Shown here: piece after piece, positions 1-8,862 of the stretch | Position numbering within the stretch: position 1 is the stretch's first letter | How the letters are laid out: each line of letters begins with the position of its first letter | Assembly: GCA_049860595.1 (NCBI GenBank) | Contig: CP187551.1 | DNA from: Methanocaldococcus sp. 16A | Lineage (GTDB): Archaea; AGJL01; Methanococci; Methanococcales; Methanocaldococcaceae | DNA length: 64,000 bases | Reading direction: 5' to 3' (one strand) | Made by a program: the position numbers and the translations under genes | The notes under the pieces: generated by a model | Databases searched by the model: none | The model's input: only the letters and a program-made list of their open reading frames with translations | Told to the model about the DNA's origin: nothing

Positions 1-162
1 GATAATCCTAAATAATACAAAATTCCAGCCAAAATTTTAATCTCTATCGACTTCTTATTCCTTTTAACTATCTTCTCAATCTTTTCTTTTAACATTTCTA
101 TCGTAAGTTTCATATCTTCCTTTATTTGCACATATTTATTTAATCTTTATCTTGACAACCTC
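1..162 (-). mobile_element. IS6-family element, partial copy: transposase 5' end (start codon at 113) plus terminal inverted repeat 147-162; truncated by window edge
   Basis: Near-identical to 8701-8862 at an exact offset of 8700; ends in TTATCTTGACAACCTC. Confidence 0.9.
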
Positions 163-5828: not shown

Positions 5829-6557
5829 TTATAACAAACCTAATCTCTCAGCGACAATTCTATATTTTGCAATAACATCTCCTAAATCTTTTCTAAATAC
5901 ATCCTTATCTAACACATCTCTTGTTTCTTTGTCCCACAATCTCATAGTATCTGGGCTTATTTCATCTGCAACCACTAAATTGCCATCTTTATCTCTACCA
6001 ATTTCAATTTTGAAGTCAACTAATATTATGCCTTTCTCATCAAATAATTTCTTTAAAGCCTCATTAACTTTTAGAGCAATTTCTTTAATCTTGTTTAATT
6101 CCTCTCTTGTAGCTAAACCTAAAGCTACGGCAATGTCTTCATTTAACATTGGGTCTCCATACTCATCATTTTTGTAATCAAATTGAACAATTGGAAATGG
6201 CAATTCTTTTCCTTCTTCAAAAGGATATCTTCTGCATAAGCTTCCTGCAGCTATATTTCTAACTATAACTTCTATTGGTACAATCTCAACCTTTTTAGCT
6301 ACCATGTATCTTGGTTCTATATACTTTATGTAGTGGGTCTCTATCCCATTTTCTTCCAAAACTTCAAATAATTTTGATGAAATTAGGGCGTTTAAATACC
6401 CTTTATTCTCTTTAACATCATGCTTAGCTCCATTTCCAGCTGTTATATCATCTCTAAACTCAATTAAAACTTTATCCTCATCAATTTCATAGATAGACTT
6501 TGCTTTTCCACTGTATAGTGGCTGCTTTTTTAATATTTCTTCCAATTTTATCTCCAT
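5829..6557 (-). CDS. purC: SAICAR synthetase
   Basis: GKAK, PIEVIVRN, LVDFKIE, DEISPDTMRLWD. Confidence 0.97.
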   Translation of the reverse strand: MEIKLEEILKKQPLYSGKAKSIYEIDEDKVLIEFRDDITAGNGAKHDVKENKGYLNALISSKLFEVLEENGIETHYIKYIEPRYMVAKKVEIVPIEVIVRNIAAGSLCRRYPFEEGKELPFPIVQFDYKNDEYGDPMLNEDIAVALGLATREELNKIKEIALKVNEALKKLFDEKGIILVDFKIEIGRDKDGNLVVADEISPDTMRLWDKETRDVLDKDVFRKDLGDVIAKYRIVAERLGLL

Positions 6558-6696
6558 ACTTTCCCACCTAAAGAAGTTTATTGAGTTATAATCTTAAATT
6601 TAATTACTTTTATGGCAAAATAGTTTAACTTAAATGTAATATAAATGTAATATAAAAATTTTAGCTTAATAGGAACAAAAAAGATATTAAAGATTT

Positions 6697-6732
6697 TCGA
6701 TGTGCCTCCCTTAAACGGGTTCGGCACATCGA
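6697..6732 (-). promoter_or_regulatory. Archaeal SECIS element in the selD 3' UTR
   Basis: mRNA UCGAUGUGCC-GAA-CCC-GUUUAA-GGG-A-GGCACAUCGA: 10-bp stem, GAA/A internal loop, three C-G pairs. Confidence 0.93.
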
Positions 6733-6786
6733 CTAAAGACGTTTTTACATAGAATCTTTAATGGAGATGAACTGCCCAGCACCGAG

Positions 6787-7836
6787 TTAGACTTCAACTA
6801 TTTCAACATCTTTACTTAAAATTGCCTTTCCTTTACATTTTTTCTTTACTTTTCCAACCTCAAAAGCATAACATTTAGCTTTCTCCAACTCATCAATTAA
6901 ATCATCTTTATACTCTTTTTTTGCTGATATTAATAATCCTCCTGCAGTTTCTGCTCCATAACCTTCCAATAATGCATGACCAAATAATTTACTCAACTCA
7001 GGAGTCTTTTTTATGCATGGTAAAGTATGGATTTCTATTAAAACATTGCTGTTCTTAGCCATTTCATTTGAATGCCCTAATAGACCAAATCCAGTAATAT
7101 CTGTTAAGGCATTTGCTATTTTATCTCCAACTCTTTCTTCTGCTTTTCTTAAAGCCATTAATCCATATCTATTTGATGTAGTCATTATTTCTATTGCTTT
7201 ATCTATAATGTATTTTTCCTCCTCATAAGTAATGTCGATTAAATTTTTGAATTCCTCAGGAATTCTTGATAACGCCATCGCTGTTTGAGTACCTAATGGT
7301 TTTGTTAATATTAAAATATCTCCTTCCTTAGCTCCACTTTTTGTTAAAACTTCTTCTTCTCTCCCAACGCCAGTAACTGCACCTCCAATCAAAGGCCATG
7401 GGTTTAGTATAGTATGCCCACCAACTATTGAGGTTTTATTTTCTCTACAAAAGTCTTGAAATCCTTTTAACATTTCCCTAACTATTTGTATTGGAAGTTT
7501 TTCAGGAATTCCAACAATTGCTAAAACACCTACTATATCTAATAATCCCATAGCGTAGATATCGCTTGTTGAATTACAGGCAGCTATCTTTCCTTGTATA
7601 TATGGATTATCAACAATCGGTGTGAAAACATCTACTGTCTTTGCAATAACTAATCCATTTCTTTTAATTACTGATGCATCATCTCCTAATCCAACCAAAA
7701 TATTTTTGTCTGATAAATCCTCTTCATTAACTATTCCTTTAACTAAATATTCTAACTCGGTGCTGGGCAGTTTACAAGCTCATCCATGTAATTTAACCAA
7801 TTCAGTTAATTTTATTTTTTCATCTGCTTTTTCCAT
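6787..7836 (-). CDS. selD: Selenophosphate synthetase, selenoprotein (in-frame UGA = Sec19 at 7782-7780), 349 aa
   Basis: Frame extends through TGA to ATG at 7836: MEKADEKIKLTELVKLHG-U-ACKLPS; GDDA, TVDVFTP, DITGFGLLGH motifs; SECIS downstream. Confidence 0.96.
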
Positions 7837-8151
7837 ATTTTCACCAGTGAAAGTTATAAATTTATAAACATAACCAATAACCAATTCTATTAATAAATTT
7901 GATGAGCTATAAAATACTACCAATTAGAATTTCTAATAACCTTTGAGTTATTAAGGTTTTATATTCTTCAAAATACCATAAAGATGTTAAGAAATAGCTC
8001 ACAATTGCATTTGCAAAAAGCTTTGTCATCATTGGAAAGGATTTACCAAGCATTTACAAAAATCATGTGAGAAAGAGAATTATAAAAATCCAAAGACACT
8101 TTTATATATTTTGAAAGCTTATTATCAAGGTATTTTATGTTTAGATAGAGG

Positions 8152-8862
8152 GACGATGTCAAGATAAGACGATGTCAAGATAAGGAGAGAAAGAAGTTAT
8201 AGAAAGAGGAGAAAGATACGAGCCAGCTAATGACGGTTGAGAATTTAGTATTACTTGGGAATCGATTATAGAAAGATTTAGTTCTTCGTTTGAGTAGGGA
8301 AAAGAAACTTTCGACACAATTTCTTAAACCGAATCGAACTCTTTCGAATTTTAGTCCTAATCTTTGCAGTGCCCACGGATACCATTTGCCACCATCGACT
8401 AAAATCTTTGGTTTATTCGAGCAAAATTTTAATATATTTTTTACGAATAAGATTGTATCGAGGTAGCATCTTGTTTTAGAGACATAGATACCTAAACATT
8501 CTTTAGAACCCACATCGATAGCAGACCATACATAAATAGTTTCATTTCCAATCTTTAGTTTAGTTTCATCGATTGCTATTAGGTTTCTTGTCTTTCTTTC
8601 AGGCTCGTTTAAAATCTCCTTAATCTTGTGATAATATGTTCTAACCGATTCATGACTTATACTTTCAAATTGAGAAAGAAACAAACTAACCTTTCTTAAC
8701 GATAATCCTAAATAATACAAAATTCCAGCTAAAATTTTAATCTCTATCGACTTCTTATTCCTTTTAACTATCTTCTTAATCCCTTCCTTTAACATTTCTA
8801 TCGTAAGTTTCATATCTTCCTTTATTTACACATATTTATTTAATCTTTATCTTGACAGTCTC
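8152..8862 (-). mobile_element. IS6-family insertion sequence
   Basis: Imperfect 16-bp terminal IRs with core TGTCAAGATAA/TTATCTTGACA; flanking direct repeat AGATAGAGG at 8143-8151 and 8863-8871. Confidence 0.92.
8175..8813 (-). CDS. IS6/IS240-type DDE transposase, 212 aa
   Basis: [39 protein letters not shown]. Confidence 0.92.

Follow-up and report, generated by a model that had tools for sequence, protein, structure and literature searches.

The window analysed here is a stretch of 64,000 nucleotides from contig CP187551.1 of Methanocaldococcus sp. 16A (assembly GCA_049860595.1), and it contains on its minus strand a selenophosphate synthetase gene, selD, which is itself required for Sec synthesis. 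The elements relevant to this analysis, with positions numbered from the first letter of the window, are as follows.

6787..7836, minus strand: coding sequence of selD (selenophosphate synthetase / selenide, water dikinase), with its ATG at 7836-7834 and including the TAA stop at 6789-6787; it has one in-frame TGA.
7780..7782, minus strand: Sec UGA, codon 19, in the motif LHG-U-ACKLP.
7751..7772, minus strand: arm 1 of the predicted long-range helix, which is coding (codons 22-29, K-LPSTEL-E) and starts 7 nt after the UGA.
6770..6791, minus strand: arm 2 of the predicted long-range helix, which covers the last two bases of the final sense codon, the TAA stop and the first 17 nt of the 3' UTR.
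6697..6732, minus strand: predicted archaeal SECIS core hairpin, with a 10-bp basal helix, a GAA / A internal loop, a 3-bp apical GC helix and a 6-nt loop.
6686..6762, minus strand: predicted extended hairpin in which UUAAAGAUU pairs with AAUCUUUAA and encloses the SECIS; its base lies 7 nt after arm 2.
6677..6682, minus strand: run of six U directly after the SECIS hairpin, which may mark the transcript end; this is inference only, drawn from the use of oligo-T by archaeal terminators.

The protein matches the NCBIfam SelD equivalog NF010705 at 630 bits (cut-off 291) and TIGR00476 at 243 bits (cut-off 125). An in-frame TGA is present at the HG-U-ACK motif in all 30 selD loci fetched, and 38 of 40 Methanococcales genomes give a selD match with one in-frame TGA. 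The base of the SECIS helix (6732) lies 37 nt after arm 2, and the hairpin 6732-6697 folds with the GAA / A internal loop (z = -3.6 for the 121-nt stretch). The extended hairpin appears in both the MFE and centroid structures of this stretch and again when the whole mRNA is folded. A strict regular expression found only 4 of the 9 SECIS hairpins in the genome, but a looser pattern combined with folding recovered at least nine, and the eight besides that of selD share its architecture, although a role in Sec insertion is inferred from this architecture alone. An Rfam scan of positions 6000-8500 at E up to 10 gave only four weak chance hits (snoRNA-like, SAM-III), none of them at the arms or the SECIS, and no archaeal SECIS family matched.

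An earlier note, made from the sequence alone, had drawn attention to a 22-bp complementarity between the two arms, and we find this observation to be correct in every detail. Positions 6770-6791 (AACTGCCCAGCACCGAGTTAGA) and 7751-7772 are 22 nt long and 100% complementary, with 959 nt between the arms. Chance is excluded as an explanation. In the genome as a whole (1.62 Mb) there are 26 perfect inverted repeats of 18 nt or more with 100-3000 nt spacing, of which, by our count, 7 have at least 50% G+C. Two of these 7 flank the two 16S rRNA genes, and the other five lie in selenoprotein genes (hdrA twice, selD, fwuB and a second fwdB-like gene). The note's claim that arm 1 uses a run of GC-ending codons also holds. 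CTG, CCC, AGC, ACC and GAG make up 1.5%, 2.5%, 9.8%, 7.9% and 34% of their synonymous families in 624 long ORFs, with a joint probability of about 1e-6 and a GC3 of 0.21. However, the CCC codon, and ACC or GCC at the Thr/Ala position, also appear in most orthologues that lack the helix, and part of the codon bias therefore may not be due to pairing.

We next examined selD in related genomes, here grouped into genera g1 to g5, where g1 is Methanocaldococcus and g3 is Methanothermococcus. In all 18 assessable loci of g1 (16) and g5 (2) a perfect helix of 17-22 nt is present at the same place, with arm 1 starting at +10 to +14 (U of UGA = +1), that is 6-10 nt after the UGA, and arm 2 ending 14-95 nt before the SECIS base. 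This recurrence in 18 separate genomes excludes an assembly artefact, which the note had named as a possible refutation. In 18 of 18 loci the UGA-proximal window gives the best duplex with the UTR among about 60 CDS windows; since RNAduplex energies are inflated by long interior loops they were used only as ranks, and coordinates were taken from searches for perfect runs. Arm 2 is not tied to the stop codon, as it starts from -2 to +24 relative to the stop in orthologues, and it has moved 27 nt downstream in one selD locus (L009) and still pairs. In contrast, the helix is absent from 10 of 10 loci of g2-g4, although selD in these genera has the same linear distance of about 992 nt, and from 10 of 10 Asgard selD loci. 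The helix is therefore not a general requirement. These counts leave out eight further selD loci of g2/g3 and distinguish the loci by genus only, without growth temperatures. A phylum-level search returned the same 40 genomes, and a scan of genome contigs returned Methanococcales, Asgard and bacterial loci only, so that Methanopyrus is not represented.

The two arms are under selection to pair with each other, as shown by covariation. In the alignment, 96.8% of cells are paired, against 22-43% when the partner is slid by 1-3 columns. Six pairs show Watson-Crick to Watson-Crick changes on both sides (20 cells), and 0 of 500 shuffles reach the covariation score. Seven arm-1 haplotypes each match their own UTR at 16-17 of 17 positions, against a mean of 12-15 for the UTRs of other haplotypes. 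By our mapping of the haplotypes on the tree at least about 8 independent double substitutions are required, one of which accompanies a Thr-to-Ala change. No G-U intermediates are seen in the 15-pair core, which is unusual for RNA helices, although it is expected if only strong pairs survive at 80-90 C. Copying at the DNA level would also give this pattern, and the repeat could in principle have no RNA function but be an inverted repeat kept identical by gene conversion or template switching, or a relic of a rearrangement. We consider this highly unlikely. By our reasoning, arms of 17-22 bp lying 1 kb apart seem too short for recombinational homogenisation, and the repeat has persisted across genomes whose SelD proteins are only 74-78% identical. 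Moreover, arm 2 has moved and still matches, rare codons are maintained in arm 1, and five unrelated genes carry such repeats exactly at UGA-proximal and SECIS-proximal sites.

These other genes were identified by searching the remaining selenoprotein genes of the same genome. In hdrA, 26 bp join UGA+40 to the UTR 29 nt before the SECIS GAA, with a nested helix of 19 bp. In fwuB, 19 bp start at UGA+26 and end 23 nt before GAA, with a nested 13 bp, and in the fwdB-like gene 18 bp start at UGA+32 and end 28 nt before GAA. In fdhA, flanks of 12 + 17 nt on either side of the 5'-UTR SECIS pair with the contiguous stretch UGA+28 to +56. Our arithmetic from these figures gives docked UGA-SECIS paths of 36-56 nt, against linear paths of about 460-1520 nt. 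No such helix occurs in vhuD, the HesB-like gene or fruA, where the UGA-SECIS distance is 400 nt or less, nor in the Cys paralogues of hdrA and fwdB; vhuU was inspected by translation only.

The tether of hdrA is missing or degenerate in 9 of 15 g1 loci, and an extended search to 1480 nt downstream found none in hdrA loci L037, L040-L042, L047, L050-L052, L058, L059 and L063-L065. Such tethers are thus dispensable in some lineages, although in one genome (G014) the hdrA SECIS (GAA changed to TAA) and its arm 2 are both degenerate, suggestive of co-decay. For the fwdB-like gene no tether was found in 9 of 9 loci of g2/g3, but these are poorly assessed, since our pattern found a SECIS candidate in only 1 of the 9. 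Swap tests for fwuB and hdrA with fixed 15-nt windows gave only small differences between own and other UTRs (12.97 against 11.33, and 11.67 against 10.21); many loci lack the tether and the windows were not optimal, and we do not count these as evidence of covariation.

The MFE and centroid folds of the whole 1181-nt selD mRNA keep the helix as the dominant long-range element, and its calculated free energy is -43 kcal/mol at 37 C and -15.7 kcal/mol at 85 C. It is possible that the helix is a conditional switch, forming or melting with temperature, selenium supply or ribosome traffic, and setting the priority of selD among selenoprotein mRNAs. The steep fall in stability between 37 and 85 C, the role of selD in Sec synthesis, and the position of its helix, which is the closest to its UGA and is conserved in 18 of 18 g1 and g5 loci whereas the hdrA tether is often lost, would be compatible with this. 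However, no alternative pairing partner or competing structure was found and there are no data on regulation, and we regard this reading as improbable.

The earlier note had proposed a cis RNA bridge that both pauses the ribosome and delivers the SECIS with SelB, and this interpretation is supported only in part. We favour the view, to which we would assign a probability of about 0.68, that the helix acts as a SECIS tether. Pairing of the codons just 3' of the Sec UGA with the start of the 3' UTR would loop out about 960 nt of coding sequence and place the SECIS hairpin on the UGA-proximal end of the helix, so that the UGA-to-SECIS path falls from 1050 nt to about 44 nt (7 nt plus 37 nt). This would raise the local concentration of the SECIS, and of whatever factor with SelB and Sec-tRNA binds it, at the ribosome that has UGA in its A site. 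The analysis itself establishes the complementarity, its conservation and compensatory evolution, the rare codons of arm 1, the parallel helices in four other selenoprotein mRNAs and the predicted stability at 85 C. On the other hand, we infer that the helix forms in vivo between ribosome passages, that it increases Sec insertion, and that it matters mainly at very high growth temperature; any pausing of the ribosome is likewise conjectural. Every translating ribosome must melt the helix, which has to re-form between passages. There is no experimental evidence for the selD helix, and no RNA run containing the sequence of positions 6600-7900 was found.

Reporter data from a mesophile argue in both directions. 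In Methanococcus maripaludis a SECIS placed 520-679 nt from the UGA works without any tether (PMC9622424). Adding complementary flanks to a 5'-UTR SECIS did not change raw reporter activity in this organism and lowered the mRNA three-fold, although the mRNA-normalised activity was two-fold higher when the flanks were complementary (PMC11881835). The effect on mRNA abundance raises the possibility that the helix controls mRNA fate rather than recoding, by circularising or protecting the transcript, marking it for a double-strand-specific nuclease, or coupling termination to re-initiation. In selD, arm 1 lies about 65 nt from the AUG and arm 2 covers the stop, as this would predict. In the other four genes, however, the coding arm lies about 390-625 nt from the start codon and follows the UGA rather than the 5' end, arm 2 is not tied to the stop codon in selD orthologues, and the Cys paralogues have no helix, although they would have the same stability needs. 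We therefore consider a role in mRNA fate unlikely.

A further possibility is that the helix is mainly a roadblock, slowing the ribosome when UGA occupies the A site and favouring SelB and Sec-tRNA over the release factor, with the proximity of the SECIS being incidental. The start of the very stable selD helix 6-10 nt after the UGA in 18 of 18 loci is the spacing of known recoding stimulators, roughly at the mRNA entrance of the decoding ribosome, but this spacing is fixed by the codons and its conservation is not independent evidence. In hdrA, fwuB, the fwdB-like gene and fdhA the helix starts 23-37 nt after the UGA, which is too far for a roadblock acting at the moment of UGA decoding. A local hairpin would also do this job, yet the partner is always the UTR segment next to the SECIS. 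A purely roadblock function thus seems unlikely, although in selD alone it could be a secondary activity of the tether.

A broader reading, which we judge about as likely as not, is that hyperthermophilic Methanococcales use a general and so far unrecognised SECIS-tether system. In this view every selenoprotein mRNA whose UGA lies more than about 450 nt from its SECIS (selD, hdrA, fwuB, the fwdB-like gene and fdhA) carries a 17-29 bp long-range helix that brings the SECIS to within about 36-56 nt of the UGA, and archaeal Sec decoding at 80-90 C would work as a bacterial-style local SECIS assembled in trans by RNA-RNA pairing. The selD helix, the only one that abuts the decoding ribosome, would give selD priority, and the arrangement could be an evolutionary intermediate between an in-frame bacterial SECIS and a free distal SECIS. 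A conserved, co-varying helix that would dock the SECIS beside the UGA gives a concrete and testable RNA-based answer, for hyperthermophiles, to the unresolved question of how an archaeal SECIS in a UTR communicates with a ribosome paused on UGA a kilobase away. It also provides clear design rules for mutational tests and for engineering selenoprotein expression, namely arm position, arm length and a docked distance of about 40-50 nt.

The note's belief that the arrangement is undescribed is only partly right, since an analogous complementarity around the 5'-UTR SECIS of fdhA1 in Methanococcales has been published (Peiter et al. 2025, PMC11881835), although a Methanococcus maripaludis reporter in that paper did not need it. 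We found no paper describing UGA-proximal/3'-UTR complementarity for selD, hdrA or fwuB, and the 2026 review PMC13188914 has no such passage, although Wilting et al. 1997, Rother et al. 2001 and the supplements fall outside this search, and the latter, including Table S3 of PMC11881835, may bear on the point. In the fdhA1 case, UTR sequence next to the SECIS is complementary to the ORF a few tens of nucleotides 3' of the Sec UGA, which would place the SECIS about 43 nt from the UGA, and the complementarity is conserved in Methanococcales and reported to be longer in thermophilic genera. The selD helix shares the pairing of SECIS-flanking sequence with the ORF 3' of the UGA, but its SECIS is in the 3' UTR, the helix starts closer to the UGA and is separated from the SECIS by 14-95 nt, and the looped-out segment is the coding region. 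Only the 5' side of the selD SECIS is tethered, as no run of 11 nt or more involves the 100 nt after the SECIS GAA, whereas in fdhA of the same genome both flanks pair with one contiguous ORF segment, so that the SECIS forms the third arm of a junction. The paper does not mention hdrA, and its passages on fwuB and selenophosphate synthetase concern SECIS strength rather than complementarity. The four other cases in this genome show that the fdhA observation is probably one instance of a wider rule, which includes 3'-UTR SECIS elements and the gene that supplies selenium for all Sec synthesis.

Once docked, the selD SECIS would sit a few tens of nucleotides downstream of the UGA at the mRNA entrance side of the ribosome, in effect recreating the arrangement in bacteria, where the SECIS is a hairpin directly 3' of the UGA that is bound by SelB (summarised in PMC11881835). 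The archaeal hairpin differs in having the GAA / A kink-turn-like motif, in being untranslated, in that its binding factor is still unknown (PMC11881835), and in being brought in by a long-range helix rather than being contiguous. In the Sec redefinition element (SRE) of some eukaryotic selenoprotein mRNAs, and in downstream stimulators of stop-codon readthrough, a stable structure also begins about 6-8 nt after the recoded stop codon, but these are local stem-loops or pseudoknots, whereas in selD the partner strand lies 1 kb away and carries the SECIS. Kilobase-range helices that link a recoding site to a 3' element needed for recoding occur in plant RNA viruses, in luteovirus frameshifting and tombusvirid readthrough. 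Those interactions, in viral genomes, are short bulge-loop or kissing contacts with no SECIS or special elongation factor, and the perfect 17-22 bp helix predicted here in a cellular mRNA would add a cellular example to long-range recoding interactions known mainly from RNA viruses.

The selD gene lies on the minus strand and its product matches the NCBIfam SelD equivalog at 630 bits against a cut-off of 291, with purC following downstream. The ORF upstream of selD (8043-8813, minus strand) resembles an insertion-sequence transposase by its look only; it reads through one TGA and may be a pseudogene. The elements of the locus are as follows.

7836-7834, minus strand: ATG start codon of selD
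7782-7780, minus strand: in-frame TGA, codon 19, in the motif HG-U-ACK
7751-7772, minus strand: arm 1 of the complementary pair, starting 7 nt after the UGA on the mRNA
6770-6791, minus strand: arm 2, covering the stop codon
6789-6787, minus strand: TAA stop codon
6762-6686, minus strand: longer predicted hairpin enclosing the SECIS, with its base 7 nt from arm 2
6732-6697, minus strand: predicted SECIS hairpin, starting 37 nt after arm 2, with a 10-bp helix, a GAA / A loop, a 3-bp GC helix and a 6-nt loop

A search for repeats reported the two arms as 22 nt, 100% complementary, with 959 nt between them. The observation in the earlier note, that a perfect 22-bp complementarity joins the region just after the Sec UGA to the start of the 3' UTR beside the SECIS, is therefore confirmed, and every coordinate that it gave is right.

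In the whole 1.62-Mb genome there are 26 perfect inverted repeats of 18 nt or more with 100-3000 nt spacing, most of which are AT-rich or belong to repeated elements. By our count of the listed sequences, seven have at least 50% G+C. Two of these are 21-nt repeats that flank the two 16S rRNA genes (387031-388652 and 790194-791815 on contig C1 of this genome), where they are presumably the rRNA processing stems, and the other five lie in selenoprotein genes: hdrA (26 and 19 nt), selD (22 nt), fwuB (19 nt) and a second fwdB-like gene (18 nt). The rRNA repeats are the only other GC-rich long-range perfect helices in the genome. Inverted repeats of 52 and 25 nt at C1 80088-82525 look like the ends of another insertion sequence, and a family of 17-18 nt inverted repeats (TTATAGTTGTGTGCAAAA-like), with arms about 98 nt apart, occurs at eight or more sites (e.g. 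C1 277720-277835, 404639-404754, 687208-687322, 1058596-1058709, 1180154-1180269 and 1416396-1416511). Where the intervening sequence was seen, a strong GC hairpin (AATGCCTTCC...GGAAGGCATT) lies between these arms, and the family looks like a small repeated element. The note's claim that arm 1 is written in unusual GC-ending codons also holds, since CTG, CCC, AGC, ACC and GAG account for 1.5%, 2.5%, 9.8%, 7.9% and 34% of their synonymous families in 624 long ORFs, a joint probability of about 1e-6 in a background with GC3 at 0.21 and genome G+C at 0.30.

In 38 of the 40 Methanococcales genomes searched, the selD match holds one in-frame TGA, while one further hit is cut by a contig end and one incomplete genome gave no close match. 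We examined the 30 best loci, leaving out eight that all belong to genera g2 or g3; two of the 30 (L011 and L027) are truncated. In all 18 assessable loci of genera g1 (Methanocaldococcus, 16 loci) and g5 (2 loci), a perfect 17-22 nt helix links positions +10..+14 after the UGA (U of UGA = +1) to the start of the 3' UTR, with arm 2 starting from -2 to +24 relative to the stop and ending 14-95 nt before the SECIS base. In 18 of 18 the UGA-proximal window gives the strongest duplex with the UTR among about 60 windows of the coding region. In contrast, this is not the case in the 10 assessable loci of g2 (1), g3 (Methanothermococcus, 8) and g4 (1), which have only AT-rich runs of 10 nt or less at unrelated places and whose SECIS starts 2-16 nt after the stop. 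Within the stretch that forms arm 1 in g1, these tether-less orthologues (among loci L020-L030) nevertheless use the rare CCC codon in 9 of the 10 assessable loci, as does the truncated L027, and ACC or GCC at the Thr/Ala position; this may be a relic of a lost helix or a separate context effect near the UGA. Ten assessable Asgard selD loci with an in-frame TGA have no UGA-proximal run longer than 9 nt against 700 nt downstream. A short conserved motif, AAA(A)CGTC or AAATGTC followed by a pyrimidine-rich stretch, lies just 5' of the SECIS helix, between arm 2 and the SECIS, in several g1 loci (among selD loci L001-L009), for which no partner or role was identified.

Covariation was tested on an alignment of the 18 mRNAs from 30 nt before the UGA to 140 nt after the stop, using a 19-pair helix. 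In this alignment 96.8% of cells pair, against 22-43% when the 3' partner is slid by 1-3 columns, and six pairs carry changes on both sides (20 cells). None of 500 shuffles reaches the covariation score or the number of double-change cells, and 1 of 500 reaches the number of covarying pairs. The central 15 pairs are paired in 18 of 18 sequences and all their changes are Watson-Crick to Watson-Crick. Seven distinct arm-1 haplotypes each find 16-17 of 17 matches in their own UTR, compared with a mean of 12-15 in the UTRs of other haplotypes. When mapped by hand on a maximum-likelihood tree of the rest of the coding region, the changes need at least about 8 independent double substitutions, one of which accompanies a Thr-to-Ala replacement (locus L019). 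The arms are therefore selected to pair with each other, and because the SECIS lies 3' of arm 2 and must be in the mRNA, both arms are on one transcript. The alternative that the complementarity is merely a DNA-level repeat explains fewer of the observations.

The genome has nine GAA/A SECIS hairpins, belonging to hdrA, vhuD, vhuU, fwuB, a HesB-like gene, selD, a second fwdB-like gene, fruA and fdhA, the last of which has its SECIS in the 5' UTR. A search for perfect complementarity between coding region and UTR revealed similar helices in four further genes. In hdrA (C1 1329870-1332000, locus L031/L036) there are 26 bp (UGA+40 with stop+83..108, ending 29 nt before the SECIS GAA) plus a nested 19 bp (UGA+152 with stop+17..35), and fwuB likewise has 19 bp (UGA+26; 23 nt before GAA) plus a nested 13 bp, and in both cases the nested helices together would zip a long stretch of the 3' UTR onto the coding region after the UGA. 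The fwdB-like gene has 18 bp (UGA+32; 28 nt before GAA), and in fdhA a 12-nt 5' flank and a 17-nt 3' flank of the SECIS pair with the contiguous segment UGA+28..+56. No such helix was found in vhuD, the HesB-like gene or fruA, where the UGA lies 400 nt or less from the SECIS; vhuD has one 13-nt run, but both of its arms lie within the coding region. The Cys-containing paralogues of hdrA and fwdB in the same genome show only AT-rich runs of 11 nt or less. The coding arms follow the UGA and not the 5' end, lying by our arithmetic about 390-625 nt from the start codon in the four other genes. Control of mRNA fate, as an alternative role for the helix, likewise explains fewer of the observations. 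Docked UGA-to-SECIS paths would come out at 36-56 nt (selD 44, fwuB 36, fwdB-like 47, hdrA 56, fdhA 44), against linear paths of about 460-1520 nt.

Across genomes, the fwdB-like helix is present in 6 of 6 g1 + g5 loci. The fwuB helix is 15 nt or more in 16 of 29 TGA-containing loci, including g3, 10-14 nt in 8 loci and absent in 5. The hdrA helix is 15 nt or more in 16 of 30 loci, comprising 6 of 15 in g1, 2 of 2 in g5, 8 of 10 in g3 and 0 of 3 in g2 + g4. In G014, the closest relative of this genome, the hdrA SECIS (locus L037) reads UAA in place of GAA and its arm 2 is also degenerate, although hdrA keeps its in-frame TGA; it may rely on the SECIS after vhuD, about 670 nt downstream. Several g1 genomes have no GAA/A SECIS directly after hdrA and no tether. 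In 18 of the 30 hdrA loci (L036-L065, for example L036 at stop+123) the hairpin after hdrA is framed by AGAUGAGG ... CUGAUG, which looks like a box C/D or kink-turn motif at its base, and a 19th pattern hit (L047) looks spurious. In most of these the hairpin is the GAA/A SECIS, but in five g1 genomes only a short hairpin with this frame and no GAA/A loop follows hdrA. Such tethers can therefore be lost, whereas the selD tether was not lost in any g1 or g5 genome examined. That the helix serves as a conditional switch is a further possibility that accounts for fewer of the observations.

The MFE and centroid structures of the whole 1181-nt selD mRNA, predicted with 37 C parameters, contain the long-range helix and the SECIS hairpin. 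The calculated duplex free energy is -43.2 kcal/mol at 37 C, -26.9 at 65 C and -15.7 at 85 C, and the other helices give -10.7 to -15.2 at 85 C. These values do not include the cost of closing a kilobase loop, and we infer that the lengths look about sufficient for very high temperature.

The evidence fits a cis tether that docks the SECIS next to the UGA. The helix is under pairing selection, its two ends are defined by the UGA and the SECIS in five different genes and in two topologies, it occurs only where the linear distance is long, it is absent from the Cys paralogues, and in one lineage it decays together with its SECIS. Because pairing is antiparallel, the 3' end of arm 2, which leads to the SECIS, meets the 5' end of arm 1, which lies next to the UGA, and in this view the SECIS is held at the side from which the ribosome approaches. 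The complementarity, its distribution and the selection for pairing are established by the comparative analysis, but docking of the SECIS, any pausing of the ribosome and any enhancement of Sec insertion are inferred from sequence alone. The note's interpretation, a cis RNA bridge that both pauses the ribosome and delivers the SECIS, is partly supported, and the comparative evidence largely supports the tether. In selD the helix begins 6-10 nt after the UGA, which is about where the mRNA enters a ribosome with UGA in its A site. A pausing effect is possible for selD but cannot be the common function, and a roadblock alone explains fewer of the observations than a tether. The absence of the helix from selD of g2-g4 and of Asgard archaea, together with reporter data from a mesophile (PMC11881835), shows that it would be an enhancer rather than a requirement. 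It is probably tied to growth at 80-90 C, although this link is inferred.

Sec insertion at 520-679 nt from the SECIS, without any designed pairing, has been shown by Peiter and Rother 2022 (PMC9622424). Full-text literature searches and a 2026 review (PMC13188914) gave no description of the 3'-UTR helices, supplements and the papers of 1997 and 2001 aside. The closest precedent is that of Peiter et al. 2025 (PMC11881835), who noticed that the 5'-UTR SECIS of fdhA1 is flanked by 7 and 10 nt complementary to the ORF, which would place it 43 nt 3' of the UGA; the feature is conserved in Methanococcales and the flanks are longer in thermophilic genera. In their M. maripaludis beta-lactamase reporter the flanks were not required, as raw activity was unchanged, mRNA fell three-fold and normalised activity rose two-fold. 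Their paper has no occurrence of hdrA, its passages on fwuB and selenophosphate synthetase concern SECIS strength only, and it states that the archaeal SECIS-binding factor is unknown. The selD helix differs from the phenomenon described once, for fdhA, in that it involves a 3'-UTR SECIS, is one-sided and abuts the UGA, and it also points to a possible general tether system in hyperthermophilic Methanococcales.
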